This document shows, piece by piece, positions 4,003 to 53,656 of a stretch of 64,000 bases of DNA. Under the pieces are notes generated by a model. The model ran no database searches, was not told where the DNA came from, and saw only the letters and a list, made by a program, of their open reading frames with translations. The stretch's first letter is position 1. Every line of letters begins with the position of its first letter. The translations under genes were made by a program, and so were the position numbers. The stretch comes from Eubacteriales bacterium (GTDB lineage Bacteria; Bacillota; Clostridia; Oscillospirales; CAG-272): the NCBI GenBank assembly GCA_045580325.1, contig JAZNNR010000018.1:33931-97930 (forward strand), read 5' to 3'.

Positions 4003-4221
4003 TTTGTGATACCTCCGAATAAATTATTTTTTTCATACGCTATTATTTTACCACCTTATTATCGAAATGTAAAGACCTTTTGATAAAGTTTTGTCAATTT
4101 TCTTTGTGAATTATTGATAAATTTTTTGTAAATTATAATTTTTATGGTAAAAAACGATTGTCAAACTAAAAAAAAATGTTAAAATTAAGATAAAACACTT
4201 TTTATGAAGGGATCTATACGT

Positions 4222-4467
4222 ATGCTTACTCTTGAAGCTAACAAAGAATTCACCGACACCCTGACTTCGACAACCGATAAAACAGCACAGCCTGTCAGCA
4301 AGAGTCTTAAGGATATATACTCGTCCTTTGCCAGTGTCAGCGTTTCCGAGCTTGAAAACGCTATCGTCGCAGCAACGGACAGAGATGAAAAGGTTCTTTA
4401 CAGAACTCTTCTCAACCTTAAGCTTCAGCTTGATCAGGAAAAGATAATCAATCAGACACTTCTTTGA
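4222..4467 (+). CDS. Small hypothetical protein (81 aa), candidate antitoxin-like partner of the downstream P-loop kinase
   Basis: The ORF track gives 4204..4467. The internal ATG at 4222 has a GAAGGGA Shine-Dalgarno 9 nt upstream, and the gene sits 48 nt upstream of the zeta-like gene. I recognise no motif in it. Confidence 0.5.
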   Translation: MLTLEANKEFTDTLTSTTDKTAQPVSKSLKDIYSSFASVSVSELENAIVAATDRDEKVLYRTLLNLKLQLDQEKIINQTLL

Positions 4468-4515
4468 TTTCATCACTTCAAATCACAGAAACGACCGGAG
4501 AGGAGGCGACAACGT

Positions 4516-23762: not shown

Positions 23763-23763
23763 A

Positions 23764-24005
23764 GCGATATAAATCCCTCACAGGATTTGCGATATACGCC
23801 TCACTTCATTCGCGTGCGATATGCCTGCGGCTCGATATGTGCCTTCGACACGTGAGCGCACTGCGTGCGCTTTGGGGCGCGGGATTTATATTTGCGTACT
23901 TTCCAGCACGTTCGCCTTCGGCAAACATATCGCTGACAAGCGACGCTTGTCAATATCGCATTTGCAAGGCAAATATATCGCGCTCGGCAACGCTGAGCAT
24001 ATCGC
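23764..24005. repeat. Mirror-image array of (G/T)CGATAT heptamers alternating with variable short hairpins (array A1)
   Basis: GCGATAT at 23764, 23789 and 23816, and TCGATAT at 23832. ATATCGC at 23927, 23953, 23975 and 23999. Each interval holds a different palindrome. Confidence 0.85.
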
Positions 24006-24030
24006 TTACCGAATAAATGAGGTGAATATT

Positions 24031-24384
24031 ATGAATAAAACTATTAAAGAACTTGCAGTTGAACTTACCATAGAAATCACTGCCGTTTGTGATACTATCA
24101 AAGGCAGAGCTGTATTTGTTAGTCAGCTTTTGCGCTCCTGCTCTTCAATAGGTGCAAATAGCTATGAAGCAAAATATGCGCAAAGTACCGCAGACTTTGT
24201 AAATAAACTTGAAATAGCTCTCAAAGAATGTTATGAAACCGACTATTGGCTTGAAATACTGTTCAAGGTAGGCTCAATGGATGAAAACACCTATAAAACA
24301 CTTGCAAATAAATGCGGTATTATTCGCAGAAAACTCATCGCATCCATCACCACAGCAAAGGGGAGCAGTCGAGGACAAAAGTGA
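24031..24384 (+). CDS. Four-helix-bundle protein (23S rRNA intervening-sequence protein family)
   Basis: ATG at 24031 follows AATGAGGTGA. Motifs: SSIGANSYEAKYAQSTADFVNKLEIALKECYETDYWLEIL. The upstream part of track ORF 23821..24384 is read-through of the repeat array. Confidence 0.85.
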   Translation: MNKTIKELAVELTIEITAVCDTIKGRAVFVSQLLRSCSSIGANSYEAKYAQSTADFVNKLEIALKECYETDYWLEILFKVGSMDENTYKTLANKCGIIRRKLIASITTAKGSSRGQK

Positions 24385-24450
24385 TTTTTGAGCAAAACTC
24401 AAAAGTTCGTTTTACTGCTATTTAGTATAACATATGAAAGGAGTAAGGCA

Positions 24451-24957
24451 ATGATACCTTATTATTTGAAAAAATATATAACTGATGCAAAAGAGAAAAA
24501 GGATTCTACTGTTGGAATACTTGCTTCTTCTACAGGAAATACAAATTTAGAAATATATTTTTACGGTGATACTGTGAAAATAGAAAAAACACCGTACATA
24601 GTCGATGCCGAATTTCCATGCTTGATTGTTGCAAAAGACCCTGTAACAAACGAAAAGTTCACCATTTTTGACGGAATGAAGCACGGATATGATGCAATGT
24701 TTTGCAACGAGCCATGCAATGACGCCACAAGAGAATTAAGACATTATGAGTATTATAACGGGAAAGTGCAAATTACGCTTGGCTACTCAATTGATTACGA
24801 AGATGAACGAGATGAATATGAATTCAACGAAAACGGCGATGTCATATTGACGTATGGAACTTTAGATTGGGAGCAAGCAAAATCTATTGGATTCGATTGG
24901 CTTTCGTTGAAATTTGTAGATGTGAAAAAGGAATTTGTTGATCTTGAGTTGGCTTGA
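24451..24957 (+). CDS. Hypothetical cytosolic acidic protein (168 aa)
   Basis: ATG at 24451 follows GAAAGGAG. The sequence is AT-rich (about 35 percent G+C in one 60-nt line counted by hand). No motif recognised. Confidence 0.65.
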   Translation: MIPYYLKKYITDAKEKKDSTVGILASSTGNTNLEIYFYGDTVKIEKTPYIVDAEFPCLIVAKDPVTNEKFTIFDGMKHGYDAMFCNEPCNDATRELRHYEYYNGKVQITLGYSIDYEDERDEYEFNENGDVILTYGTLDWEQAKSIGFDWLSLKFVDVKKEFVDLELA

Positions 24958-24967
24958 CCACAAATTA

Positions 24968-25116
24968 TAAAATATACCTTTTGCTCTCTTGACCCATATA
25001 GAGAGTGTGTGTTTATTGACACGAAAATAAGTGCAAACCCGTAGGGGCTGGCGCCCACGACAGCCCGTGCGTATATTTAGGCTTTTCGGGACGTCGAGGA
25101 CGCCGGTCCCTACAAC
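24968..25116 (-). repeat. Repeat R copy A (contains a REP-like GTAG-hairpin...hairpin-CTAC element, family E1)
   Basis: 24968-25097 is identical base for base to 25731-25860 (130 nt). Contains GTAG-GGGCTG-gcgcccacga-CAGCCC and GGGAC-gtcgaggacgcc-GGTCC-CTAC. Confidence 0.9.
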
Positions 25117-25175
25117 AGAATGCTCGAAAGTTCATTTTACAGCAGTTTAGTATAACAGATTGAAAGGAAGCAAAA

Positions 25176-25733
25176 ATGCAGAAAAAATCACGCCAAAGAA
25201 AAGAACGACGAAACATGGACCGATCAACCTCTGATGTTCTATCAAGGCAAACGCAAACAATGAAAACAGCTTTCCTCGATTATTTAGGTGCTACAATTAT
25301 GTTTTTTGTGATGGCGCTCGTTGTATTTGTGGTTGGACTTTTGACCGAAGACGCATCGCATTCCAAACGTATTATTTTTGGTGCCACACCTATTATTCTT
25401 GGTTTCACTATATTTTTCGCTTTTCTTTTTCTTCGTCGATTTGTAATTTTTATAAAGATAAATAAGATCAAATCTTCAAGTGAACAAACTATCAAAATTA
25501 CTTGTAAGAAAGTGGCATTTTTAACTCAACCTATATCCAGAAATTCTTTCGTAATTATATGTATTGTTTTAACAGACGAAAACGGCAAAAAGTATTATGA
25601 CATAGTAAATGGAATTTCTGATATTGCTAAAAAAAGAACACGAGCGGAGCTATTAAACGCAAAGATTACACTTAATTGCTATGCGAATACAAAATTTGTG
25701 AAAACCTATCAGGTCGATACAGTCAAGGAGTAA
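25176..25733 (+). CDS. Hypothetical membrane protein (two TM helices plus a C-terminal domain)
   Basis: 185 aa with RBS GAAAGGAAG. It is flanked on both sides by repeat R. Confidence 0.65.
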   Translation: MQKKSRQRKERRNMDRSTSDVLSRQTQTMKTAFLDYLGATIMFFVMALVVFVVGLLTEDASHSKRIIFGATPIILGFTIFFAFLFLRRFVIFIKINKIKSSSEQTIKITCKKVAFLTQPISRNSFVIICIVLTDENGKKYYDIVNGISDIAKKRTRAELLNAKITLNCYANTKFVKTYQVDTVKE

Positions 25734-25882
25734 AATATACCTTTTGCTCTCTTGACCCATATAGAGAGTGTGTGTTTATTGACACGAAAATAAGTGCAAA
25801 CCCGTAGGGGCTGGCGCCCACGACAGCCCGTGCGTATATTTAGGCTTTTCGGGACGTCGAAGGCGCCGTCCCCTACCAAAAG
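25731..25882 (-). repeat. Repeat R copy B (E1 family)
   Basis: The first 130 nt are identical to copy A. It then diverges as GGGACGTCGAAGGCGCCGTCCCCTACCAAAAG. It starts on the stop codon of the preceding gene. Confidence 0.9.
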
Positions 25883-25992
25883 CCAAATTCTATATGCCCT
25901 TACGGATAATAAACCTCGCTATCGCTGCGGCGTATCGAAAAAATAAATTTTACGGAAGTACAAGTTAATATTCCGCTTAAAAGGAGCAAATA

Positions 25993-27096
25993 ATGAAAAG
26001 AAAAACAGGTAAGGATAAGAAGAAAATGACAACAGCGATAGTTTTGATAAGTATAGCGTCGGTGTTAGCTTTGACAGTGATAGGCTGGTGGATATTCTGC
26101 GTTTCAATGTACAATTCCAACTTTAACGTCCGTTGTGATGATTATGAGCCTTTTATGCTGCGAGTAGAAGATTTTGACCGACTTAAGTGCAAGGAATACA
26201 AATTCAAATCAGACAAGGGGCAGGAGCTTGCAGGATATCTATACAGTGCGGGGGAAGATCAGCGCGCAGTCGTGATCATTGCCCACGGATTTGGCGGCGG
26301 TCACAATTCATATATGGATGCAGCCAACTATTTCGCGCAAAACGGTTATTATGTTTTTGCCTACGACGCAACAGGTTGCCTGAGTAGTCAAGGCGACGGC
26401 GTGGGCGGAGTTCCGCAGGGTGTGATAGACCTTGATCACGCCATTTCATTTGTAGAAGAAAATGAGGATATTCCGAAGCTTCCCATCGTTCTTTTCGGAC
26501 ATAGCTGGGGTGCATATTCTGTAAGCGCTGTTTTGACATATCACCCCGAAGTCAAGGCAGTAATCGCATGCTCGGGCTTCAACAGAGCGTCCGATATGTT
26601 TGAATCGGGCGGAAAATCACAGGCAGGCAGCATAATTCATGCCATGATTCCGTTTATCAGAGTCCACGAGCAAGTCAAGTATGGCAAATATGCCTCAAAC
26701 ACCGCGATGGACGGCTTTGAAGCGGCGGAAAACACATCTGTAATGATAGTACATAGCGCAGATGACAACGTTATCGGCATAGAATACGGCTACGACAAAT
26801 ATTATGAAAAATACGAGAATGACGAGCGTTTTGTTTTTGTAAGATATGAGGACAAGGGGCACAACGACATTTTAAAGAACCCCGAGGACACTTATATGGA
26901 CGAAGTACAAGCCGAGTACACAAAGTGGCTTGAAACACTCGATTACGATTATAATTCAAAGGACAACAAAGACCGTTTCAGAGAAGAAAAGATTCAGTAT
27001 CTTAACGAAACTCTTGACCACGCAAGACTGAGTAACAGACTTGATACAGATATGTTCGCGCACTTTTTGGACTTCTATAATCAAGCCGTGCAGTGA
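25993..27096 (+). CDS. Membrane-anchored alpha/beta hydrolase
   Basis: 367 aa. N-terminal TM helix, nucleophile elbow GHSWGAY, HGFGGG oxyanion region, and a late Asp/His (HSADDNV and KGHND). Confidence 0.8.
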   Translation: MKRKTGKDKKKMTTAIVLISIASVLALTVIGWWIFCVSMYNSNFNVRCDDYEPFMLRVEDFDRLKCKEYKFKSDKGQELAGYLYSAGEDQRAVVIIAHGFGGGHNSYMDAANYFAQNGYYVFAYDATGCLSSQGDGVGGVPQGVIDLDHAISFVEENEDIPKLPIVLFGHSWGAYSVSAVLTYHPEVKAVIACSGFNRASDMFESGGKSQAGSIIHAMIPFIRVHEQVKYGKYASNTAMDGFEAAENTSVMIVHSADDNVIGIEYGYDKYYEKYENDERFVFVRYEDKGHNDILKNPEDTYMDEVQAEYTKWLETLDYDYNSKDNKDRFREEKIQYLNETLDHARLSNRLDTDMFAHFLDFYNQAVQ

Positions 27097-27097
27097 T

Positions 27098-27129
27098 ACG
27101 GACCGTCGAGGACGCCGATTCCTACCAAA
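27098..27129 (-). repeat. Partial E1 element (hairpin-CTAC half only)
   Basis: GGACCGTCGAGGACGCCGATTCCTACCAAA begins 2 nt after the hydrolase stop. It shares the GTCGAGGACGCC core with the other copies. Confidence 0.75.
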
Positions 27130-27137
27130 TGATAACG

Positions 27138-27203
27138 TCGATATGCGCTTCACGCTCGATATGCCGCTTGCGGCTCGATATGTTTTGCCTGACGGCAAAA
27201 CGA
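27138..27203 (+). repeat. Three TCGATAT + hairpin units (array A2)
   Basis: CGATAT at 27139, 27157 and 27176, followed respectively by GCG-cttca-CGC, GCCG-ctt-GCGGC and GTTTTGCC-tgac-GGCAAAAC. Confidence 0.85.
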
Positions 27204-27228
27204 GATTTTACATCACACAGGTGAAACC

Positions 27229-28032
27229 ATGAACAACGTAAACAAAACACTATACATTCCGCTCTACGGCAAGGCTTTTGTGAGCAAAAAAGGAATTATC
27301 CTTCACGACGAAAAAGCCGAGGAAATATGGTCGGCGGAAGGCTTTAAATTAAAAGGTAAGTCAAAATCGAAATGGCTCGCCTACTATATGGGAATGCGCT
27401 CTGCCGTTTTTGACAGCTGGGTTAAAGAAAAAATGAGCGCTACACGTGATGCCGTGATACTCCACGTCGGCTGCGGAATGGACTCAAGAGCTTTGCGTAT
27501 CGGCGAAACAGGGCATTTATGGTACGACATTGACTTTCACAAGGTCATAGAGGAGCGCAAAAAATATTACGCCGAATCGGGCAATTATCATATGCTCGGA
27601 ATCGACGTAAGAAGTGCTGATTTTACTGAAAATATAGAAGGATGCGAAAACGCGATAATTATTATGGAAGGCGTGAGTATGTATCTTGAAACTGAAGAAC
27701 TAAGGCTTTTATTTAAAAAGCTGACAAAGCACTTTGGGAGCGTCCGCGTTCTTATGGACACTTATACCCTTTTTGCCGCCAAAATGTCAAAATTCAAAAA
27801 TCCTATAAACGACGTCGGAGTTACCACTGTTTACGGACTCGATGATCCGAAAATCTTAGAGGAAAACACAGGCGTGAAATTTATAAAAGAGCATGAAATG
27901 ACTCCCGATATTTTGATAAACGAGCTTAAGGGAATAGAAAAATCGGTATTCAAGAGGGTTTTTGCGGGTAAATTTTCCAAAAAGCTTTACAGGCTTTACG
28001 AGTTCGCAGGTAGCTCTGCTTACGGCAGATAG
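27229..28032 (+). CDS. Class I SAM-dependent O-methyltransferase (LCMT/TcmP-like)
   Basis: 267 aa with VILHVGCGMDSRALR, which matches the GxGxDxR SAM motif of the leucine carboxyl methyltransferase family. Confidence 0.7.
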   Translation: MNNVNKTLYIPLYGKAFVSKKGIILHDEKAEEIWSAEGFKLKGKSKSKWLAYYMGMRSAVFDSWVKEKMSATRDAVILHVGCGMDSRALRIGETGHLWYDIDFHKVIEERKKYYAESGNYHMLGIDVRSADFTENIEGCENAIIIMEGVSMYLETEELRLLFKKLTKHFGSVRVLMDTYTLFAAKMSKFKNPINDVGVTTVYGLDDPKILEENTGVKFIKEHEMTPDILINELKGIEKSVFKRVFAGKFSKKLYRLYEFAGSSAYGR

Positions 28033-28298
28033 ATCGGAAGCATATCGTAAACGATGTCTTTCAGATGGCAAGGCTCCACCTCCTCGGTAGCGATAAGATA
28101 AAGAAATCGCTCGGCGACTCTGCTCTCACGGCAGACGTCCCTCGCAAATTCGCACTCGTCTTGTGTATCTCCGACAAACTCGGCAGACACCGAAAAGATC
28201 CCTTCGCCAAGCTCACCGTGCTCTTCAAAAAGCATGTATTTTATGCTTCTGCCTGACGGCAGATGCTTAATTAGTTCTATAATTTTATTATTTTTCAT
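28020..28298 (-). CDS. Hypothetical small protein (92 aa)
   Basis: ATG at 28298 gives MKNNKIIELIK. It converges on the methyltransferase gene and overlaps its 3' end by 13 nt. Confidence 0.55.
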   Translation of the reverse strand: MKNNKIIELIKHLPSGRSIKYMLFEEHGELGEGIFSVSAEFVGDTQDECEFARDVCRESRVAERFLYLIATEEVEPCHLKDIVYDMLPIYLP

Positions 28299-28568
28299 AT
28301 TTTCTTTCCGCAAACACAATATATTGTATTTTTTCTCTTTCGGTCTGAATTTATGATACCATATTTTGATAATCTATTATACTATCCGAGTTGCAATTTT
28401 TTCGACATATTTGTGCGCTAAATGCTCAAAATCGGGTGCTTTTGACACTTTAGAACATTTTTATTGTGCATTTTATCAAATAGCATTCGCTTCGTATTGC
28501 AAAAATCAAAAAAATATGTAAAATATACTATATGTTCCATACACAGTTTTAGTTAAAGGAGTACTTAA

Positions 28569-44987: not shown

Positions 44988-45023
44988 TTTTCGAAGTTAT
45001 ATTGTCTGCGAACTGTTGTAGAA

Positions 45024-45052
45024 ATAATAACACATTTCTTTAAAATTGTCAA
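45024..45052 (-). promoter_or_regulatory. Sigma-A type promoter of the 44828..32000 operon
   Basis: On the minus strand: TTGACA, 17 nt, TATTAT. Confidence 0.6.
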
Positions 45053-45501
45053 GAGACCATTATTTACATAATAGGTATAAAAAGTCCGTACACAAGGTAA
45101 ATATCTCCCTTTTGTACTACTTTTTTCAAGACCGTTTTTTTAAATCATTTTTTCCGAGTGTTCACACTGTGCCTTGCGTTTCAAATTTCGGATTCAGGTC
45201 TTTATCTACTCTTGGGGTTATTTCTCTGAAAATTCGGGAAATTTGGTTTGGTTTTGTCCGTTTTTAGTGTTTTACAGCATATTATACTCTTTTGGGCATA
45301 CTGACGAATATTTTAAAAACCTATTTTTTTCATATTTTTTACACTTTAATCATTTGTAAAATTTGCACAATTTTCGAGCCTTTTTTTCTACATTTAGACG
45401 AAAATCATTTTTTGCAAAATTTCATTGATTTTTTCTATATTTTTTGCTCTTTTTTCTTTATTTTTATCAATTTCCTTTGTTATACTTTTTTAATTTTGCT
45501 A

Positions 45502-46426: not shown

Positions 46427-47644
46427 ATGGAATTTGGCGGAATCAATTTTGACACATATTTTAAAAACTATCCCGATCAGAACGGGTATTTCGGAAAATA
46501 CGGCGGCTGTTACGTATCCGACGAGCTCACAAAGGCGATGCAGGAGATCACAGAGGCTTACTTCACTATCTGCAAGTCGCGCAAGTTCATCGACGAGCTT
46601 CGCCGCATACGCAGAGAATTTCAGGGTCGTCCTACTCCTATTTCCCATCTTGAGCGTCTTTCAAACAAGCTCGGCAACGTTCAGCTCTACGTTAAGCGCG
46701 AGGATCTGAACCATTCGGGCGCACACAAGCTCAATCACTGTATGGGCGAGGCTCTTCTTGCGAAATATATGGGCAAGAAGAAGGTAATTGCCGAAACAGG
46801 TGCAGGACAGCACGGCGTTGCTCTTGCGACAGCTGCGGCATATTTCGGTCTTGAATGCGATATTTATATGGGCTCTGTTGATATTAAGAAGCAGGCTCCC
46901 AACGTTGCAAGAATGAAGATTCTCGGCGCAAACGTTGTTGAGGTAACTCATGGACTTGCAACCCTCAAGGAAGCTGTTGACGACGCTTTCGCGGCATACG
47001 CAAAGGAGTACAAGGACGCTATCTACTGCATCGGTTCGGTTCTCGGACCTCATCCCTTCCCTATGATGGTGCGCGACTTCCAGAGCGTTGTCGGTATCGA
47101 AGCAAGAGAGCAGTTCACCGAAATGACAGGAGAGCTTCCCGACGCGATCGTAGCCTGTGTTGGCGGCGGCTCTAACGCGGCAGGATTTTTCTCGGGATTC
47201 CTCAACGATCCCGTAGAGATATACGGCATCGAGCCTCTCGGACGCGGTCCAAAGCTCGGCGATCACGCAGCAAGTCTTAAATACGGCACGGAAGGCATTA
47301 TGCACGGCTTCAACTCGATCATGCTCAAGGACGAAAACGGCGAGCCTGCGCCCGTTTATTCGGTAGCAAGCGGTCTTGACTATCCTTCCTCGGGTCCCGA
47401 GCACGCATTCCTGCGCGACCTCGGCAGAGTTAAGTACGACGTTATCAACGACGATGAAACTATCGACGCATTCTTCGAGCTTTCGAGAATGGAAGGCATT
47501 ATCCCCGCTATCGAAAGCGCACACGCGGTAGCTTACGGAATCAAGCTCGCACAGCGTATGAGCCACGGCTCTGTTCTTATCAACCTCTCGGGCAGAGGCG
47601 ACAAGGATATGGACTACGTAATTGAGAATTATGGAATAAGATAA
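46427..47644 (+). CDS. trpB: Tryptophan synthase beta chain (stand-alone)
   Basis: 405 aa. Contains [22 protein letters not shown] (PLP lysine region) and GGGSNAAG. No trpA or other trp genes are adjacent. Confidence 0.9.
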
Positions 47645-47649
47645 TCGGA

Positions 47650-47727
47650 GGGGCGTTGCCCCTGAACCCCACTCAGGAAACTTTTGAAAAAGTTTCCTGA
47701 TAACCTTCAAAACTTTATAGAAAAGTT
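47650..47727 (+). repeat. Three-hairpin intergenic repeat, family E3 copy a
   Basis: GGGGC-gtt-GCCCC; CAGGAAACTTTT-ga-AAAAGTTTCCTG; AACTTT-atag-AAAGTT. The order and core (CTTTTGAAAAAG...CAAAACTTT) match 55085-55151. Confidence 0.75.
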
Positions 47728-47730
47728 AAG

Positions 47731-47763
47731 GGCTTCTGCTGAAAAGCAGAAGCCTTTGGTTTT
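47731..47763 (+). terminator. trpB intrinsic terminator
   Basis: GGCTTCTGCT-gaaa-AGCAGAAGCC followed by TTTGGTTTT. Confidence 0.8.
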
Positions 47764-47770
47764 ATAAATT

Positions 47771-47823
47771 TGAGATAAAATCACACCAATATTTAATGCT
47801 GAACTCACCGACAAATTGAAATT
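47771..47823 (-). repeat. Cassette 3'-boundary module B (long form)
   Basis: The minus strand directly after the HAD stop reads AATTTCAATTTGTCGGTGAGTTCAGCATTAAATATTGGTGTGATTTT, homologous to the sequence after the 51761 gene stop. Confidence 0.7.
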
Positions 47824-48606
47824 TTACAAACTCTTTAATATCCTATGTTCTATAAATTTTGCAACACCATCGGCATCGTTGCTTTCTATAACATAATCAG
47901 CAACAGATTTAACTTCATCAATTCCATTGGAAACAGCAATACCCAACCCGCACATTTTTATCGGTTCAATATCGTCTTGGTCATCTCCAAAATAGGCCGT
48001 TTCATTAGGAGAACAGTTACAAATATCCAGCATTGCCTTAATGCCATTCCACTTTGTTGCTGTTGTGTTCATTATTTGCAATAAATAACCATGAGCAATT
48101 GTATAATGCAAATCTTCTGTCAATTCTTTTTTGACAAAGTAAAGTGTTTCCTCGCTGTCAAGGTGAACCAGTATTTTTAATACGCCTTCCTTGTTGGCAA
48201 TGCCAATCAAATTGTTTGAAACAATTGTTTTGTAATCTTCAATAGGATGATTTGAGTATGCACGGTCTCCTGTTTCGAGGGTAATTCGAAGATTAGGATA
48301 GCATTTTAACGCATTCAATAAATGCTCGGCACTTCTTTGACAGATAGCATAATCCACTTGTTGATTTCTGTGGATTATTCTTGCACCATTGGAAACAACC
48401 ATTGCATCAAAGCCAATCAAATCACCAAATTGTTTTGTTGTACGTAATGGTCTGGCTGTGGCAACCATGATGTTAATTCCACGTTTCTTACATTCTTTAA
48501 GGACTTTGATAGTACGCGCGGATAGGGTTTTATCTGTATGTAGCAAAGTTCTATCTAAATCCACGACAATAGTCTTAACACTTGCAGTGTTTATCATTGC
48601 TATCAC
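47824..48606 (-). CDS. Cof-type HAD-IIB family hydrolase
   Basis: 260 aa. Motif I VVDLDRTLL and motif IV FGDDQDDIEPIKMCGLGIAVSNG. Confidence 0.85.
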   Translation of the reverse strand: MIAMINTASVKTIVVDLDRTLLHTDKTLSARTIKVLKECKKRGINIMVATARPLRTTKQFGDLIGFDAMVVSNGARIIHRNQQVDYAICQRSAEHLLNALKCYPNLRITLETGDRAYSNHPIEDYKTIVSNNLIGIANKEGVLKILVHLDSEETLYFVKKELTEDLHYTIAHGYLLQIMNTTATKWNGIKAMLDICNCSPNETAYFGDDQDDIEPIKMCGLGIAVSNGIDEVKSVADYVIESNDADGVAKFIEHRILKSL

Positions 48607-48628
48607 ATCCTTTCGTCAAATTGGAATT

Positions 48629-48952
48629 TTACATTCTAATTTCCGTATGAAAATATTGTTCTTGAAATGCAACTTGCCGCATAATTTCATCTTTTGTAAA
48701 GGATACACCTTCTGGTGCTACAACCCACTTTTCTTCTATGTCATCATATCTATGAATGATGGCAATTACTTTGCCACTAAACTCTTTAATGGGTTCATTT
48801 ACGCCAACTATGTATGCATCTTGTTCTTCTCCGTCAGCAGCTACAATACCCTCTATATAGCCGTAGTTGACAGAATAGTAGATGTCTTTATGCTCTGGAT
48901 GATATGTTCCTAATGGGCGATCAACAATAACCTTAACAAATTTTCCTAACAT
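48629..48952 (-). CDS. Small inorganic-pyrophosphatase-like protein
   Basis: ATG at 48952 follows GAGGT by about 6 nt and gives MLGKFVKVIVDRPLGTYHP...NYGYIEG...DGEEQDAYIVG...RYDDIEEKWVV, which resembles short PPase-family proteins. The alternative start at 48982 overlaps the upstream stop. Confidence 0.6.
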   Translation of the reverse strand: MLGKFVKVIVDRPLGTYHPEHKDIYYSVNYGYIEGIVAADGEEQDAYIVGVNEPIKEFSGKVIAIIHRYDDIEEKWVVAPEGVSFTKDEIMRQVAFQEQYFHTEIRM

Positions 48953-48978
48953 TTTAACCTCGACAAAACAGAATTTGT

Positions 48979-49203
48979 TCATTTCTTTTTCTTGTTAAGA
49001 TAGATAATAACGGCAATCAAAATGGCCACAATTATTGCCGAAATCAATCCACCAACGATCAGCCAATGTGTTTGGTAAGTAAGAAATCTAGCAGTAGGGC
49101 CATCTGCACCACCGATAATGCCAACGGATGAGGCTTCATTGTTACAACCACCAAGGCACAATACAAGAATTAATAATGAAACAAAAATCATTAACTTTTT
49201 CAT
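48979..49203 (-). CDS. Small lipoprotein with a C-terminal TM anchor (74 aa)
   Basis: ATG at 49203 follows AAAGGAG. Lipobox LILVLCLGGC. C-terminal hydrophobic helix plus a KKKK tail. Confidence 0.6.
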   Translation of the reverse strand: MKKLMIFVSLLILVLCLGGCNNEASSVGIIGGADGPTARFLTYQTHWLIVGGLISAIIVAILIAVIIYLNKKKK

Positions 49204-49246
49204 ACACGGACACTCCTTTGTCAAGTTTTTCAACCTATTAGACCTA

Positions 49247-49413
49247 TTCAAGTTTATCGATTAGATACCTAAGTGAAATAATTATATCATAAAAATTCCA
49301 AAAAGTAAATAGGACGGCTCAATTTTTTACAAATTGAACCGCCCTACGTCTTGTAGGGACAGGCGTCCTCGACTGTCCGCTTATTACGGCGGCAGCAAGC
49401 CACCGCCCTACAA
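49247..49413 (+). repeat. E1+P module copy 1 (REP-like element fused to a leftward promoter and shared 5' UTR)
   Basis: About 97 percent identical to 52373-52531 (roughly 5 substitutions and one 8-nt indel by hand alignment). Core: CCGCCCTAC-gtctt-GTAGGGACAG-gcgtcctcga-CTGTCC...GGCGG-cagcaagcca-CCGCCCTAC. Confidence 0.9.
49281..49309 (-). promoter_or_regulatory. Promoter carried by E1+P copy 1, driving the lipoprotein/PPase-like/HAD operon
   Basis: On the minus strand: TTTACT, 17 nt ending TGa, TATAAT. Confidence 0.65.
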
Positions 49414-49519
49414 AAAGAGTCATAATGATTCTATTAAAAACCGTTATGACTCAAAAAGATTGCAAAACATTGCAATTCTAAATAATTTATGGTACAATGT
49501 AAAAGAGGAGCGTGAGTAT

Positions 49520-50392
49520 ATGGAACTGTATGCAAGTGATATGTTCTTTCGTGGCGGTAACGAAAAAGAACAAGCATATGATTGTTGTATTCATGGAAAT
49601 ATTATTTTTAAAATTGGGGATAATTTACTCTCTGATAACACAGAGTGGTGTGTAAGCGCCTCGGCATATAGGTTCTTGCATACTCTCTTTGAAAATCATT
49701 TTATGGGTGCAGAAGAGTTTATGATTTCTTGTTGTGGACATTTTATGGTTCCGTCGGAAGATAAAATGTCTGTAAGTATCGTCGGTTGCAGTAATGGTAT
49801 TGATTTCAACATTATTCACGAAGACGAAAGCATTACCATTGTAACAGCAGATGATGCTGAATATCATATTCCCTTTGAGGACTATAAAAAGGCGGTTATA
49901 TCTTTTGCTGAACAAGTAATGGACTTCTACAAAGCAAACCCACCCCGTGAGTTTGAAGACGATTTTAACAAAGACGGATATAGTGCTTTTATCACCGAGT
50001 GGTATTCGCTATATGACAAAGCAATTTCAATGCTGAATGAGATTCCGAAAATCAATCCCATTACTTTTGAAGATTATGAAGCTTGCACTGAAAATGAAAT
50101 TACGGGTATAAGTAAGGCAGGAATATCGCTTAAATCATTTGGTTTTATCAATTTCAAAGAGTGTGCATATAATTTTAAGCAAACAGAGGGCGGTTCGGGA
50201 AAGTGTGTCGGAGAAAGAGAAATCACAAACCTTTCATTTACTTTCTACACATCGCCCAAACCGATTATGATTAAGTTCATTGAGAAAAACAAGTTTATTG
50301 AGTTTATCACAAAAGAAAACACGATATATCGTTTTAATAAACTCCAAAAAGAGATTTTGAAATATGGATATAGCACAAGAGATATGACATAA
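49520..50392 (+). CDS. Hypothetical protein (290 aa)
   Basis: ATG at 49520 follows AAGAGGAG. Its own promoter is TTGCAA, 17 nt, TACAAT at about 49470-49497. The first 62 codons of track ORF 49334..50392 are read-through of the E1 repeat. Confidence 0.7.
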   Translation: MELYASDMFFRGGNEKEQAYDCCIHGNIIFKIGDNLLSDNTEWCVSASAYRFLHTLFENHFMGAEEFMISCCGHFMVPSEDKMSVSIVGCSNGIDFNIIHEDESITIVTADDAEYHIPFEDYKKAVISFAEQVMDFYKANPPREFEDDFNKDGYSAFITEWYSLYDKAISMLNEIPKINPITFEDYEACTENEITGISKAGISLKSFGFINFKECAYNFKQTEGGSGKCVGEREITNLSFTFYTSPKPIMIKFIEKNKFIEFITKENTIYRFNKLQKEILKYGYSTRDMT

Positions 50393-50404
50393 TAAGGAGG
50401 CTTT

Positions 50405-50683
50405 ATGTCACATAGTAAATATAATAAAAGAGGTCACTCACTATATTTAGATAATTGGAATCCGAATGCAAAAAAATATATCAACGAATGCAAAATATGC
50501 GGATATAAAGGTTATAGTCCTGCAATAGAAGAATCCGACTTTTTAAGCAACAGCGACAAAGATCTCTTTACATTTTCAATTAACAAGGCAATATATGAGG
50601 AATTGACCAAAACATTTTCCGCGTTAGAATTGGATGAGTACGGTCGTTGTAAGGATTGTGCAAGAATTCAAGATAAAAAGTAA
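50405..50683 (+). CDS. Hypothetical zinc-ribbon-like small protein (92 aa)
   Basis: Two Cys pairs (CKICGYKG and CKDCARIQ) and RBS AAGGAGG, 12 nt after the upstream gene. Confidence 0.6.
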   Translation: MSHSKYNKRGHSLYLDNWNPNAKKYINECKICGYKGYSPAIEESDFLSNSDKDLFTFSINKAIYEELTKTFSALELDEYGRCKDCARIQDKK

Positions 50684-50690
50684 TTAGATA

Positions 50691-50727
50691 AAAATGGCTA
50701 TGACATTCCGTGTGTCATAGCCATTTT
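50691..50727. terminator. Bidirectional terminator after the 49520-50683 gene pair
   Basis: AAAATGGCTATGAC-9 nt-GTCATAGCCATTTT. Confidence 0.75.
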
Positions 50728-50733
50728 AAAATA

Positions 50734-50770
50734 ATTTGCACCAAGTTTGCACCAAAGCACAAAACCAAGC
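50734..50770. repeat. Fragment of boundary module B (TTTGCACCAA direct repeats)
   Basis: ATTTGCACCAAGTTTGCACCAAAGCACAAAACCAAGC, compared with GTTGCACCAAATTTGCACCAAAATCACACCAAC at 51695-51727. Confidence 0.6.
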
Positions 50771-50779
50771 ATAAGAAAA

Positions 50780-50812
50780 CCCCGAAAACCGTGATGGTTT
50801 CGGGGTCTTTGA
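50780..50812 (-). terminator. Probable terminator downstream of the GNAT gene
   Basis: CCCCGAAA-10 nt-TTTCGGGG, with TTTTCTT following on the minus strand. Confidence 0.55.
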
Positions 50813-50906
50813 ATACTCTTTGAAATAATACAGGTCATCTCTTTTTTCGGGGGATTAAGCACGCCGTTTGACACCGTAAATAACATTCTGCAAAGAATTT
50901 GCCAAA

Positions 50907-51359
50907 TCACTTTTTCATCTCCATATAAGGAATAACCTCGTAGCCGCATTTTTTATAAACGTTCACGGCTCTTTCGTTTTCTTCTTCGACTTCCAAGCGA
51001 AATATTGCCCCGGGGTACTTATCTTCAATGAATTTAAGAAAACGGCTTCCGATTCCCAAGCCTCTATACTCGGTTTTAATATATATATCCTCGCTCCACA
51101 TACACGGCTTTCCGAATTCTGTGGAAAAGCTTTTGGCAACCATAGCGTATCCTTGTATTTCTTCTGCGTTTTCAAAAATATATCCTTCAAGATACGGATT
51201 ATCACTAAGGCAGGCATTTATGTCTGCTTCGAATATTTCCTGCGAGCCGTTAGTTAATACCGCAGGAGAAGCATAGAAGACTCTCATCATTTCGAGAACC
51301 TGTCCTCTGTCCTTCTCTTCCATACCTCTGATTACACTTTGCACTTTATTTGCCTCCAT
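50907..51359 (-). CDS. GNAT-family N-acetyltransferase
   Basis: Acetyl-CoA motif EYRGLGIGSRFLKFIE. The track start at 51389 lies inside the -10 box of the upstream promoter, so ATG 51359 (MEANKVQ) is preferred. It has no clear Shine-Dalgarno. Confidence 0.8.
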   Translation of the reverse strand: MEANKVQSVIRGMEEKDRGQVLEMMRVFYASPAVLTNGSQEIFEADINACLSDNPYLEGYIFENAEEIQGYAMVAKSFSTEFGKPCMWSEDIYIKTEYRGLGIGSRFLKFIEDKYPGAIFRLEVEEENERAVNVYKKCGYEVIPYMEMKK

Positions 51360-51387
51360 ATTGAAATTCGGGTTATTTATCGTGTGC

Positions 51388-51416
51388 ATTATACCATAAT
51401 TTCGGCAAAAAGTAAA
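51388..51416 (-). promoter_or_regulatory. Promoter carried by E1+P copy 2, driving the GNAT gene
   Basis: On the minus strand: TTTACT, 17 nt ending TGg, TATAAT. Confidence 0.65.
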
Positions 51417-51512
51417 TAGGACTTTTTACAAATTGAACCGCCATACGTCTTGTAGGGACAGGCGTCCTCGACTGTCCACCTGTTACGGCAGCAGTAAGCT
51501 GCCGCCCTACAA
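51388..51512 (+). repeat. E1+P module copy 2
   Basis: AAAAAGTAAATAGGACTTTTTACAAATTGAACCGCCATACGTCTTGTAGGGACAGGCGTCCTCGACTGTCC...GGCAGCAGTAAGCTGCCGCCCTACAA. The second hairpin has compensatory changes (GGCAGC/GCTGCC versus GGCGG/CCGCC). Confidence 0.85.
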
Positions 51513-51516
51513 CCAA

Positions 51517-51578
51517 AACAGACCCCACAAAACCGTGAGGTCTGTAAAAATATTGTTCGAAGAACTTATCTCTTTGAG
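51517..51578 (-). repeat. Copy 3 of the rpsI tail plus terminator (module T)
   Basis: The minus strand reads TCA AAG AGA TAA (S K R stop), then GTTCTTCGAACAATATTTTT, then hairpin ACAGACC..GGTCTGT. It is near-identical to the sequence after the real rpsI stop. Confidence 0.85.
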
Positions 51579-51596
51579 TTTTAGCAATACCGTTTG

Positions 51597-51683
51597 ATAT
51601 CGTGAATATCGTGGAAATATCGTGTGATATCGTGCATTTATCGTGTGTTTTCGTGCGATATCGTGAATATCGTGAGTATCGCC
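51597..51683 (-). repeat. Nine phased (A)TATCGTG / CACGATAT repeats with a period of about 10 bp (array A3)
   Basis: TCGTG begins at 51600, 51609, 51620, 51630, 51641, 51651, 51661, 51670 and 51679. Spacings are 9, 11, 10, 11, 10, 10, 9 and 9. Confidence 0.9.
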
Positions 51684-51689
51684 CTATAA

Positions 51690-51760
51690 AGTGTTGCACC
51701 AAATTTGCACCAAAATCACACCAACATTCAACGCTGTTCTGCTCGACAAATTGGAATTTG
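51690..51760 (-). repeat. Cassette 3'-boundary module B (long form)
   Basis: The minus strand after the TGA of the 51761 gene reads CAAATTCCAATTTGTCGAGCAGAACAGCGTTGAATGTTGGTGTGATTTTGGTGCAAATTTGGTGCAAC. Confidence 0.7.
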
Positions 51761-52363
51761 TCATTTTGTAACACACCAAATAGCTAATGGCACATAGCAG
51801 CTCACTAATACGAGTCTTTGCCAAAGACCACCGTGTCTCAAAACAGTATTTGCGAATTTTTCTTTCTCCCCCATAATGAAGAAGCAGAAGAACAAGAACG
51901 TTGCAATAAAGCTAACAAGCGAGATCGCTCCCATAATTATATCTCCCGCTTGAAACTGCATTATTGCCAAGAGCAACGGTACAGCAATTAATGTCATAAA
52001 TCCGATCGCAGAAGCACCGCCGTGAATTTTAGTCAGTGCATCCTCGTCTTGTCTGTTCTCGTTCAATGGACAAAAGCCCGAAATAATCTCACAGCCGATA
52101 CCGTATATTGCAAGTAATATCCATATTGCGATTGCCAAGCCACCGATGTTTTCTTGATACAACGCATACGGAGCAATACAGAAAACGACACCCGAGAGAA
52201 TGCACCACACATTGTAAATCCACTTCACAGGACTTTGCCGTGAGCCCAGTACCGAGAGTGCCATTTCTTTATGCTTATAGTTTGGATAAAAATGCGCAAG
52301 CAACAATGGTAGTAGATTATCTGCTACCAAAATAATAATCCATAATATTTTCATGTATTTCAT
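51761..52363 (-). CDS. Integral membrane protein (DUF998-like, six TM helices)
   Basis: 200 aa, hydrophobic throughout. The N-terminus ILWIIILVADNLLPLLLAHFYPNYKHKEMALSVLG resembles DUF998 as I recall it. Confidence 0.65.
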   Translation of the reverse strand: MKYMKILWIIILVADNLLPLLLAHFYPNYKHKEMALSVLGSRQSPVKWIYNVWCILSGVVFCIAPYALYQENIGGLAIAIWILLAIYGIGCEIISGFCPLNENRQDEDALTKIHGGASAIGFMTLIAVPLLLAIMQFQAGDIIMGAISLVSFIATFLFFCFFIMGEKEKFANTVLRHGGLWQRLVLVSCYVPLAIWCVTK

Positions 52364-52372
52364 CTCGTCAAA

Positions 52373-52531
52373 TTCAAGTTTATCGATTAGATACCTAAGT
52401 GAAATAATTATATCATAAAAATCCCAAAAAGTAAATAGGATTTTTTACAAATTAAACCGCCCTACGTCTTGTAGGGACAGGCGTCCTCGACTGTGCGACT
52501 ATTACGGCGGCAGCAAGCCACCGCCCTACAA
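52373..52531 (+). repeat. E1+P module copy 3
   Basis: About 97 percent identical to copy 1. It is directly followed by module T copy 2. Confidence 0.9.
52407..52435 (-). promoter_or_regulatory. Promoter carried by E1+P copy 3, driving the DUF998-like gene
   Basis: On the minus strand: TTTACT, 17 nt ending TGa, TATAAT. Confidence 0.65.
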
Positions 52532-52535
52532 CAAA

Positions 52536-52603
52536 AACAGACCCCACAAAAATGTGAGGTCTGTAAAAATATTGTTCGAAGAACTTATCTCTTCGAGAAC
52601 TGT
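52536..52603 (-). repeat. Copy 2 of the rpsI tail plus terminator (module T)
   Basis: The minus strand reads CAG TTC TCG AAG AGA TAA (Q F S K R stop), against the real gene CAG TTC AGC AAG AGA TAA. The same spacer and terminator hairpin follow. Confidence 0.9.
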
Positions 52604-52616
52604 TACGACGTTAAGA

Positions 52617-52639
52617 AAACACTCCGGTGGAGTGTTTTA
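52617..52639. terminator. Perfect bidirectional hairpin
   Basis: AAAACACTCC-ggt-GGAGTGTTTT. Confidence 0.5.
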
Positions 52640-52685
52640 GTCGGAACCGCAGCGGCTATGCCGCGAGGATACCTCAGTTCAGCCG

Positions 52686-52722
52686 CAAAAATAAACAGAC
52701 CCCACAAAAACGTGAGGTCTGT
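52686..52722 (-). terminator. rpsI intrinsic terminator (module T, native copy)
   Basis: On the minus strand: ACAGACCTCAC-guuuuu-GUGGGGUCUGU followed by UUAUUUUU, 20 nt after the rpsI stop. Confidence 0.8.
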
Positions 52723-52742
52723 AAAAATATTGTTCGAAGTGA

Positions 52743-53144
52743 TTATCTCTTGCTGAACTGAGGTGCACGACGTGCTGCCTTGAGACCGTACTTCTTTCTT
52801 TCCTTCATACGAGGGTCGCGAGTGAGGAATCCTGCCTTCTTAAGAGGTGCGCGGAATTCATCGCCTGCGAGAAGAAGTGCTCTTGCAATACCGTGGCGAA
52901 TTGCTCCTGCCTGTCCGGAGAAGCCGCCGCCCTTAACGGTGCAAACTACATCGAACTTACCAACTGTGTCGGTAACTCCGAAGGGCTGGTTTATAACCAA
53001 CTTGAGTGTGTCAAGTCCAAAATAATCATCAATGTCGCGTCCGTTGATGGTAACCTTACCGGTGCCGGCGAACAAACGAACTCTTGCAACAGATTTCTTT
53101 CTTCTTCCTGTGCCGTAAAAATACGGCTTTGCGCTTGTATACAT
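52743..53144 (-). CDS. rpsI: 30S ribosomal protein S9
   Basis: 133 aa with [19 protein letters not shown] and a C-terminal [20 protein letters not shown]. Confidence 0.97.
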
Positions 53145-53166
53145 CGTTTTATTCTCCTTTCACCGA

Positions 53167-53595
53167 TTAAAATTCGTAGTTAACGGGCTGCTGTGCCTCG
53201 TTGTTGTGGTTTGCGCCACGATAGATCTTAAGACGTGTGAGGCTCTTTTCGCCGATCGAGTTCTTAGGAAGCATACCCTTAACTGCAAGCTTCATTGCAA
53301 GGTCGGGCTTTTCGTTCATAAGAGTGCGATAGTTTGTAGCCTTGAGTCCGCCGATGTATCCGGAGTGGCGATAGTAGAACTTCTGATCAAGCTTCTTACC
53401 TGTAAGAATAGCCTTTTCAGCGTTTACGATGATTACGTATTCGCCGCAATCAACGTGGGGTGTGTATTCGGGACGGTGCTTACCGTTAAGAATGTTTGCC
53501 GCTGCTGCTGCAGTCTTACCGAGGGGCTTATTTGCCGCATCGATAATGTACCACTTACGCTCAACGGTTTCTTTTTTTGCCATGTAAGTTGACAT
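53167..53595 (-). CDS. rplM: 50S ribosomal protein L13
   Basis: 142 aa with KWYIIDAANKPLGKTA and YYRHSGYIGGLK. Confidence 0.97.
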   Translation of the reverse strand: MSTYMAKKETVERKWYIIDAANKPLGKTAAAAANILNGKHRPEYTPHVDCGEYVIIVNAEKAILTGKKLDQKFYYRHSGYIGGLKATNYRTLMNEKPDLAMKLAVKGMLPKNSIGEKSLTRLKIYRGANHNNEAQQPVNYEF

Positions 53596-53656
53596 TTTGA
53601 GTTACTCCTTAAAATTTATATATATTTTTTACTAACCTAATTTAGACAGCTTTGTG

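Follow-up and report, generated by a model that had tools for sequence, protein, structure and literature searches.

In streptococci, the 3' end of rpsI, the gene of ribosomal protein S9, is listed as a tyrosine-integrase target of ICEs (integrative and conjugative elements) and IMEs (integrative and mobilizable elements), and the decay of such elements to integrase-less, att-flanked cis-mobilizable elements (CIMEs) as well as their accretion in tandem have been described (PMC5704250, PMC4701971, PMC5090054). Other described systems that bear on the locus reported here are repetitive extragenic palindromes (REPs), with the composite bacterial interspersed mosaic elements (BIMEs) and REP doublets forming hairpins (REPINs) (PMC3733652, PMC2817692), the recombinase-less, direct-repeat-bounded unconventional circularizable structures (UCS) of Firmicutes (PMC7843796), and integrons. 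The locus is the interval between rpsI and trpB in a 64-kb stretch of contig JAZNNR010000018.1 (the window) from an uncultured, Oscillospiraceae-like gut bacterium of the Clostridia. This interval is probably a strain-variable hotspot for accessory genes that grew around the attB site used by one family of tyrosine-integrase elements and was shaped by their tandem accretion and decay and by reshuffling between repeats. A first-pass annotation of the window had described it as serial accretion of small cassettes at a fixed attachment point by a new, recombinase-free system. Fixed point and accretion were supported, with the 3' end of rpsI as the place where the units have accreted, and the interpretation as a new cassette system was partly supported. 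Known biology, namely decayed elements, REP-type repeats and an att hotspot located at the gene of a ribosomal protein, accounts for most of the island, and most of the claimed novelty is thereby removed. For the most part the island represents a known phenomenon in a new case, whose miniature units are unusual.

Repeat finding in the window confirmed the four modules T, E1, P and B that had been proposed downstream of rpsI (Table 1). T (73 nt) and E1 (95 nt) are each present in three copies of 88-89% and 88-95% identity, P with its 5' untranslated region (5'UTR) in two copies of 99% identity, and B in two copies of 78% identity (51701-51759 and 47766-47824). A composite T-E1-P block of 191 nt occurs at 52407-52597 and again at 51388-51578 (88% identity), and the E1 core matched three times, where no match was expected. 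Consensus scans recovered three T terminators and three TTTACT-17-TATAAT promoters with an extended -10 TG; as claimed earlier, each minus-strand unit has its own. The modules are real and far above chance. T is the rpsI tail plus a terminator and P is a duplicated promoter block. G+C content was 0.32-0.41 within the interval versus 0.46-0.55 in the flanks (trpB, rpsI), in line with the low values remarked on before, and the gene calls hold, as does the trpB-like call at the far side. An array of nine phased CACGATAT repeats was reduced to six exact and some degenerate copies; it is kept in the comparison loci L011, L012 and L167 (comparison loci or contigs are designated by L-numbers), where it lies 5' of the third tail copy, and has no structure (z = -0.2).

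Conspecific contigs were retrieved by exact-protein look-ups with RpsI and TrpB. Their rpsI-rplM segment is 98-99.8% identical to the window and their trpB side 94-97%; the contents between rpsI and trpB differ, and the interval is therefore polymorphic. In L003 the order is rpsI-T-E1-P'-GNAT-pair-E1-P-DMP19-B-trpB. Compared with the window, everything between T1 and T3 is missing (85-nt segment, T2 and DUF998 unit), a state that corresponds to the loss of one T-E1-P repeat plus the intervening DNA, and the last slot holds a different gene. In L011-L014 this slot is filled by the lipoprotein gene alone, L011 has five other small genes at the position of the DUF998 gene, and L212 and L213 show the PPase-HAD-B-trpB arrangement of the window. 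The 290-aa/92-aa gene pair was found in every conspecific configuration seen (L003, L011-L014). The presence/absence polymorphism that had been suggested for related strains thus exists, and its breakpoints fall within T, E1 and B. The 191-nt T-E1-P copies form direct repeats on both sides of the DUF998 unit, inside which no recombinase gene is found. T and E1 identities are mosaic among strains, which recombination between the repeats would explain.

Insertion at rpsI with restoration of the gene end was seen in relatives and not in the window. In L001, L002, L004, L005 and L006, homology to the window stops at 52743, the rpsI stop codon, with QFSKR* intact, and a large element with ParA, ParB and a 1563-aa SpaA-domain protein follows. 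L011, 94-97% identical to the window, shows a far junction: an ORF ends with ...MDIYAKIKYNKPEELCGVVNAAFNQPVAV / ...MDIYAKIKYNKPEEL...*, followed by a spacer of ~100 nt and a 52-nt copy of the rpsI 3' end (GTACGGTCTCAAGGCAGCACGTCGTGCACCTCAGTTCTCGAAGAGATAA); next come a terminator and then the cassette array. Of an integrase gene, L011 contains no more than the final 29 codons. This 29-aa fragment was too short for a protein search, and an X-padded query gave only short remnants, which are decayed elements of other species and not a full gene. Metagenome contigs were then scanned with the rpsI 3' sequence, giving 53 loci, 13 of which have displaced tail copies starting abruptly at GTACGGTCTCAAGG (GTACGG) after unrelated upstream DNA. 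Together with that of L011, the displaced copies measure 50-55 nt and match window positions 52741-52795. Upstream sequence was sufficient in six of the 13 loci (L141, L147, L149, L180, L186, L187), and in all six a 400-aa ORF stops ~110 nt 5' of the copy and ends in a shared C-terminal motif (...YLAGHENSKTTMDIYAKVKYNKPEEL...). The three ORFs scanned (L187, L147, L186) are tyrosine recombinases (PF00589) with a SAM-like N-terminal domain.

The same layout of integrase and att was found in relatives from IMG/VR, and in some of them a second integrase, of the phage type, comes next, indicating that the site is occupied in tandem; L202 and L197 are cases of tandem occupancy of the rpsI site. Left ends (L001, L006, L171, L181) have two copies of a 20-nt motif, TGTGTTAA...GGrCAA, and right ends (L011, L139, L140) have one, beside the integrase. 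It resembles integrase arm-type sites and may join both junction types into one element family. L139 (5113-5386) and L140 (3835-4108) hold a short ORF that keeps only the integrase C-terminus (...GHESSKPTMDIYAK...), followed by a 51-nt copy of the rpsI tail, and look like decayed elements. Judged from these junctions, the last ~52 nt of rpsI appear to be the attB identity segment of rpsI-targeting tyrosine-integrase elements. The integrase/att arrangement at rpsI, often with two tandem integrases, is widespread in uncultured gut Clostridia. With an integrase-bearing element of conspecific strains at the very same site, this wide distribution, and accretion and decay already described for streptococci (references above), the proposal of a new system working without recombinase was not upheld. 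The absence of a recombinase, on which it was based, holds for the window, where a hidden Markov model (HMM) of the rpsI-targeting integrase family found no such tyrosine recombinase among all ORFs of the 64 kb (best E = 0.14); it fails for the conspecific strains, given the L001-type element and the integrase C-terminus of L011.

Two further observations concern these integrases. Elements at the rpsI site often have two paralogous tyrosine integrase genes of ~400 aa in tandem, directly 5' of attR (L141, L149, L180, L186, L197, L202). In L136-L138 (10001-10183), a remnant of the integrase C-terminus (...GHESSKPTMDIYAK...) has an ABC transporter on one side and a BcrAD gene on the other, and lacks a tail copy.

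The tail copies in the window carry a trace of such events. At the Ser codon of the rpsI tail, AGC is used by the window, L003 and the element-bearing strains (L001-L006) and TCG by the real tails of L007-L010 and L163. Both T2 of the window and attR of L011 have TCG, and the TCG tail of T2 equals the real one of L007-L010 and L163. Since this three-base difference is synonymous, QFSKR* being preserved, T2 would derive from a functional allele and not from a drifted non-coding duplicate; it is the difference expected if an incoming element brought one allele and displaced the other. T2 retains ~26 nt of the tail, with a 5-nt gap common to the second copy of L007, so that L007 and the window have the same shortened remnant beside different inserts. 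T3 retains 13 nt. A fourth copy of ~13 nt, absent from the first-pass annotation, is joined to a different terminator, T', 3' of the GNAT gene; T' also follows the attR tail in L011 and L007, and the DNA there is homologous to the fourth tail/T' segment. T2, T3 and the fourth tail are presumably fossils of successive integrations. The 85-nt segment between T1 and T2, whose right end (..CACTCCACCGGAGTGTTTTCTTAACGTCGTAA) is common to the mini-insert of L007 and which matches L007 761-814 at 94%, is read as the leftover of a decayed element.

The interval has probably arisen as follows. Tyrosine-integrase elements would insert into the last ~52 nt of rpsI, each bringing its own rpsI tail (QFSKR*) and terminator, so that the tail and terminator already present come to lie further downstream. 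CIME-like decay would then remove the integrase together with most of the element, and further integration would follow. The outcome would be a stack of tail-terminator copies (T1-T3 and the degenerate fourth), each with a little cargo behind it, and the small units would be decayed remnants rather than elements that were always small. Since T-E1-P (~190-230 nt) and B each occur more than once, recombination between their copies and between those of a palindrome within B (see below), either homologous or through short repeats, may delete, duplicate and swap units, possibly via circular, direct-repeat-bounded intermediates that re-enter by single crossover; homologous recombination is the presumed agent of this reshuffling. 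E1, P and the core of B are not att sites.

Several points weigh against this explanation. The window units lie between tail copies of ~26, 13 and ~13 nt, compared with 52 nt in intact elements, and because of this truncation the att competence of the copies is doubtful. Homology between units runs ~200 nt to the right of the tail, through terminator, E1 and P and thus beyond the att site, an extent for which duplication or homologous recombination would account no less well. The difference between L003 and the window is best placed as a crossover within the terminator instead of the tail core, an indication that repeats recombined by homology. The units, of 158 nt, 1019 nt and ~730 nt, are far below described CIME sizes. 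In the first 10 kb of the L001 element no conjugation genes were found (ParA, ParB and the SpaA-domain protein only), leaving the designation ICE unproven, and no contig connects an L001-type left end with an L011-type right end. Finally, single genes bounded by a palindromic core in unrelated contexts are left unexplained.

Some of these points lead to the reverse proposal that site-specific integration had no part in the window array: T-E1-P and B would have spread by segmental duplication or unequal crossing-over, cargo would have been exchanged between strains by homologous recombination, and the integrase elements at rpsI of relatives would be coincidental to the small units. A repeated block of 191-230 nt at 88% identity, far longer than an att core, is what this predicts, as are the crossover in the terminator repeat of L003, the mosaic E1/T variants and the similar direct-repeat-bounded insertions away from rpsI, and UCS of Firmicutes provide a precedent (PMC7843796). 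We nevertheless consider it distinctly unlikely. The synonymous AGC/TCG difference between T1 and T2 matches real rpsI alleles and the attR of L011, unlike drift; the truncated tail remnant shared by L007 and the window stands next to different inserts; and the conspecific element is inserted exactly at the stop codon.

The preferred explanation, accretion and decay at the attB site of rpsI, draws on several likenesses to IMESag-rpsI, the streptococcal rpsI ICEs and the ICESt1/ICESt3-CIME accretions: the same 3' target with the gene end restored by element DNA, an integrase beside attR, direct repeats of the gene tail, tandem occupancy (L202, L197) and integrase-less remnants with att copies (L139/L140, T2 of the window). 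Differences are the host, which is not Streptococcus, the two tandem integrase genes of many elements, the window units of 0.16-1 kb with one gene each, and the block repeated for ~200 nt past the tail. With UCS the locus shares cargo between direct repeats of ~190-320 nt, the lack of a recombinase gene, and the gain or loss of one repeat with the intervening DNA (window versus L003; L217 versus L216 and L219). Described UCS repeats are usually longer and their cargo usually consists of resistance genes.

Table 1. Features of the rpsI-trpB interval, listed from rpsI towards trpB (positions refer to the window).
Feature	Position	Strand	Remarks
rpsI (ribosomal protein S9)	52743..53144	-	Pfam Ribosomal_S9, E = 7e-49
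T1: genuine rpsI tail CAGTTCAGCAAGAGATAA (Ser AGC) and intrinsic terminator	52688..52760	-	hairpin 52695-52722
85-nt segment	52603..52687	-	three hairpins; fold z = -3.5
T2: displaced partial tail ACGTCGTAA-CAGTTCTCGAAGAGATAA (Ser TCG) and terminator copy	52530..52602	-	hairpin 52537-52564
E1 copy A: inverted doublet of GTAG-tagged REP hairpins	52440..52534	-	GTAG-GGCGGTGGCTTGCTGCCGCC ... GCACAGTCGAGGACGCCTGTCC-CTAC
P copy A and shared 5'UTR	52372..52440	-	TTTACT-17-TATAAT at 52407-52435, extended -10 TG
Palindromic core ending the 5'UTR, TCGATAAACTTGAATTTGACGAG	52364..52386	-	immediately 5' of DUF998 ATG
DUF998 membrane-protein cargo gene	51761..52363	-	Pfam, E = 5e-20
B copy 1: palindromic core TGACAAATTCCAATTTGTCGAG, then CAGAACAGCGTTGAATG..TTGGTG repeats	51701..51763	-	stop codon in left arm
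CACGATAT array, 6 exact and degenerate copies	51597..51680	-	exact copies 51597-51674
T3: 13-nt tail remnant CTCAAAGAGATAA (51566-51578) and terminator copy	51511..51583	-	hairpin 51518-51545
E1 copy B (REP doublet)	51421..51515	-	
P' promoter of GNAT gene	51388..51416	-	TTTACT-17-TATAAT
GNAT acetyltransferase cargo gene	50907..51389	-	Pfam Acetyltransf_1, E = 3e-13
Degenerate fourth tail copy CGAAAAAAGAGATGA and T' terminator CCCCGAAACCATCACGGTTTTCGGGG	50780..50849	-	T' at 50780-50805
290-aa and 92-aa gene pair	49520..50683	+	
E1 copy C (REP doublet)	49322..49416	-	
P copy C and shared 5'UTR	49246..49314	-	promoter 49281-49309; predicted to drive the lipoprotein operon
Small lipoprotein/membrane protein gene	48979..49203	-	sole gene of this slot in L011-L014
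Core-like junction motif AAATTCTGTTTTGTCGAG, lipoprotein/PPase-like junction	48959..48976	-	breakpoint relative to L011
PPase-like small protein gene	48629..48982	-	weak match, E = 0.002, under Pfam cut-off
Core junction motif AAATTCCAATTTGACGAA, PPase-like/HAD junction	48612..48629	-	overlaps PPase stop codon
Cof-type HAD-IIB hydrolase cargo gene	47824..48597	-	Pfam Hydrolase_3, E = 9e-50; TIGR00099
B copy 2, core AAATTTCAATTTGTCGGT at 47807-47824	47766..47824	-	conserved flank beside trpB terminator 47731-47754

E1 had been taken as a signal of the cassettes. Its conserved part is a GTAG-tagged hairpin, GTAG-GGACnGGCGTCCTCGACnGTCC (GTAG-GGACAGGCGTCCTCGACTGTCC), which in the window is paired in inverted orientation with a second hairpin, GTAG-GGCGGTGGCTTGCTGCCGCC, in the layout of a REP doublet or REPIN; doublets were also found in L024, L033 and L064. 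A scan with one genome per species gave more than 120 stretches among the matches listed, several per genome, in metagenome-assembled genomes (MAGs) of Oscillospiraceae, Acutalibacteraceae and other Clostridia. Among 141 copies assessed on the same basis, 123 are located outside long ORFs, most often at the 3' end of a gene, only two of 45 classifiable copies lie between divergent genes, and no orientation bias towards accessory genes was seen in other genomes. The suggested genome search with the E1 core thus confirmed a wide occurrence, in other MAGs, and gave no orientation that would tie E1 to accessory genes. The element is also strain-polymorphic: L011 and L012 lack the 55-nt E1 body 5' of the lipoprotein promoter and have a single 10-mer GTAGGGCGGT left, which the window has on both sides of this body. 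From its spread across MAGs of the clade and its polymorphism, E1 is therefore an interspersed repeat; as a cassette-specific signal it was ruled out, being a clade-wide GTAG-REP. With REPs, BIMEs and REPINs (PMC3733652, PMC2817692) it has in common the G+C-rich GTAG hairpin, the inverted doublets, the intergenic location mostly at gene 3' ends, the high copy number in many genomes, the presence or absence among strains and, as in BIMEs, the combination with another short motif, here the B core, in mosaic units. It differs in its host phylum: Firmicutes do not figure in the GTAG-repeat survey published in 2013, which places the abundant GTAG-tagged REPs of Oscillospiraceae-like genomes outside the published range. 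A further difference is that no RAYT gene was seen in the 64 kb, where no search aimed at one (PF01797) was made. As a separate observation, GTAG-tagged REP hairpins of the form GGACnGTCGAGGACGCCnGTCC-CTAC (L016-L135) are abundant in animal-gut MAGs of Oscillospiraceae, Acutalibacteraceae and other Clostridia.

Within B lies an imperfect palindrome of ~20 nt, TGACAAATTCCAATTTGTCGAG (GACAAATTCCAATTTGTC). Allowing up to three mismatches, four copies of this core were found in the window versus 0.14 expected; a fifth and weaker one stands where the 5'UTR ends. Every copy belongs to the minus strand and falls within the rpsI-trpB interval. They follow the DUF998 gene and the HAD gene, separate the PPase-like from the HAD gene and the lipoprotein from the PPase-like gene (copies between operon genes that had been overlooked earlier), and, at the 5'UTR end, precede the DUF998 gene. 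Stop codons lie inside or directly before the left arm. The motif also occurs in unrelated MAGs beside GTAG-REPs and terminators and is therefore part of a dispersed intergenic repeat repertoire. With its weak folding (-4.7 kcal/mol, z = -1.5), the motif does not qualify as a terminator. Any likeness to CodY, Spo0A or dif sites is too weak for such an identity to be claimed.

Gene modules bounded by this palindrome are a genuine loose end. HAD homologues of 82-86% identity in two other contexts (L214, L215) have ..AAATTCCAAT at the stop codon and TTGg.AAGGGATGT..ATG upstream, and the outer halves of the palindromes differ. DUF998 homologues are 77-92% identical across Clostridia; in L015, in L216-L225 and in a Tn916-like element of C. 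difficile (L226), they are arranged as promoter (ATGATATAAT)-palindrome-ORF-palindrome. In L219, a 158-aa ORF lies within a copy of the 5' frame (83%) and 3' frame (96%) of the DUF998 gene, and the insertions that set L216 and L219 apart from L217 are bounded by direct repeats of 186 and 317 nt. In L178, an rpsI-integrated element of another species, the motif stands at three successive gene junctions. A scan of 1.6 Mb with a position weight matrix (PWM) gave 97 hits, of which 26 coincide with the end of an ORF no shorter than 70 codons, versus 21 of 485 control positions; many hits are the seeds or near-identical loci, and about ten are purely intergenic. No match was obtained when the DUF998 unit was searched by BLAST against annotated plasmids and phages, and IMG/VR scans with the DMP19 and DUF998 proteins gave nothing useful. 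The order P...B, described previously as a module grammar, recurs in these HAD, DUF998, L219 and L178 contexts and is not fully explained.

With regard to the DUF998 gene, the copy in C. difficile (GCA_051441905.1, L226 6001-9918) is 81% identical to that of the window and lies in the cargo region of the Tn916-like element (sigma/HTH_16/Xis/Int), which points to recent gene exchange across families of Clostridia. The same 158-aa gene lies upstream of the DUF998 gene in inverted orientation in L216 (2346-2822) relative to L219 (1980-2456), these contigs being otherwise collinear.

Such boundaries raise the question of a dedicated site-specific system that moves single genes as cassettes, with the ~20-nt palindrome (GACAAATT-CC-AATTTGTC / CGAyAAAyTysAATTTGwCGAG) as recombination site. 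Crossover would take place near its centre (..CAAT|TTG..), a promoter with a half-site would act as Pc/attI, lipoprotein, PPase-like and HAD genes would be stacked cassettes, and the recombinase would be supplied in trans from the genome or a mobile element. Gut Clostridia would then have an integron-like, intI-independent system swapping ORFs between expression frames (promoter + half-site ... half-site + terminator), with cassettes accumulating at the rpsI hotspot, in L216-L225, in the L178 element and in the cargo region of the C. difficile Tn916-like element. Both the system and its presence in gut Clostridia are, in our judgement, unlikely. The confinement of the core hits to the interval at 4 versus 0.14 expected, and the PWM enrichment at ORF ends, are in its favour, as is the position of the stop codons: the left arm contains those of the DUF998, HAD, PPase-like, L219 158-aa and L178 120-aa genes, and the lipoprotein and DMP19 stop codons precede it by 1-3 nt. 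Between L011 (lipoprotein-B) and the window (lipoprotein-core-PPase-core-HAD-core/B) the breakpoint is inside the core; in L015 the DUF998 gene is followed by the core and then by unrelated DNA; the HAD homologues of L214/L215 keep a left half-site at the stop and a right half-site with ribosome-binding site upstream, with different outer halves. The promoter/palindrome ... palindrome layout of the DUF998 homologues in L216-L225 and L226, the exchanged ORF between the same frames in L219 and the three successive junctions of L178 agree with it, L033:64 resembles an empty frame, and the palindrome is consistently split between neighbouring genes. The difficulties are that no recombinase candidate is linked to any array and that the site is short, AT-rich and has a centre of 2-4 nt, atypical for tyrosine recombinases. 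Moreover, the ~ten intergenic hits beside REPs or terminators have no ORF, the hits reduce to about seven independent gene families once seeds and near-identical loci are considered, the direct repeats flanking the L216/L219 insertions are the pattern of single-crossover homologous recombination, and the motif is absent from a second island of the window (Island 1, below). What can be said is that a short palindrome bounds single accessory genes in several unrelated contexts; if it is a recombination site, it would represent a new way for gut Firmicutes, and for the conjugative transposons of C. difficile among them, to exchange DNA in gene-sized portions.

A regulatory role of palindrome and shared promoter, as an operator or RNA element moving with each unit and, at gene ends, as operon punctuation, is very unlikely. 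The 5' palindrome begins 6-10 nt after the -10 box in L216, L219 and L015, a typical operator position, its right half often includes a Shine-Dalgarno sequence (GAGG, AAGGA, GGAGG), and its weak folding would be compatible with this role. A regulator would leave unexplained the copies after the last gene of a unit, where no gene follows (DUF998, HAD), the presence/absence breakpoints within the motif and the copies that lie between genes next to REPs. There is also no linked regulator gene, and nothing was found in Rfam.

Integrons, and clusters of attC sites lacking integron-integrases (CALINs), have a promoter followed by co-directional single-gene units with an imperfect palindrome recurring between them, stop codons that fall at the repeat or within it, and strain-variable unit content, all of which is found here. 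The repeat measures ~20 nt versus 57-141 nt of attC with its R''/L''/L'/R' boxes, and several window units have their own promoter. No intI was found in the window with the HMM of the rpsI-integrase family, which might miss a distant intI, and no unassigned ORF adjoins the arrays. The junction repeats of ~18-22 nt have no GTTRRRY box, a comparison made with no attC-specific model. As there is no intI and no attC, membership among integrons was ruled out, as the first-pass annotation had already concluded. Integrons are essentially unknown in Firmicutes. The pdif modules of Acinetobacter plasmids, which are flanked by Xer sites, are small gene modules between short palindromic sites, have no recombinase of their own and occur in many contexts; the core described here is unlike known dif/XerCD half-sites and is chromosomal in Clostridia.

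Island 1 lies after rlmD (= rumA) at 23763-28319 and holds REP doublets. Hairpins of the E1 type are found at 25093-25113 and at 27105-27125; with respect to the cargo their orientation is the same, as had been observed before, and a 146-nt repeat links 24968-25113 with 25731-25876 (97%). A search for a duplicated rlmD tail in this island gave nothing convincing (best match 19 nt, E = 0.14), and the palindromic core is absent from it. In streptococci and C. difficile, rlmD (rumA) is a documented target of serine-integrase ICEs (PMC4701971). Arrays of CGATAT(G) with interleaved short G+C hairpins are located at 23760-23990, directly after the rlmD stop codon, and at 27125-27190, before the gene at 27229; they recall the CACGATAT array at 51597-51680.

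Among the cargo genes of the rpsI-trpB interval, no match was found with PADLOC, and NCBIfam gave only generic HAD and GNAT names. The 290-aa/92-aa pair had no match in Pfam, NCBIfam or PADLOC, exact-protein look-ups of the 290-aa and lipoprotein genes found nothing, and Rfam gave only sub-threshold noise over 47000-53600. P copy C and the copy at the 165-aa gene of L011 are the only ones with an extra 8 nt (window 49305-49350), which complete a strong hairpin, GTAGGGCGGTTCAATTTG...TTGAGCCGTCCTAT (z = -6), directly 5' of the -35 box. Outside the interval, two sharp troughs of low G+C content were noted at 4001-4500 (0.34) and 45001-45500 (0.28). On the plus strand, E1 copies provide spurious ORF starts (MNRPTSCRDRRPRLS...) at 49334-49520 and 51433-51597; these stretch the apparent 290-aa gene to 352 aa, and annotation pipelines may call such peptides as genes.

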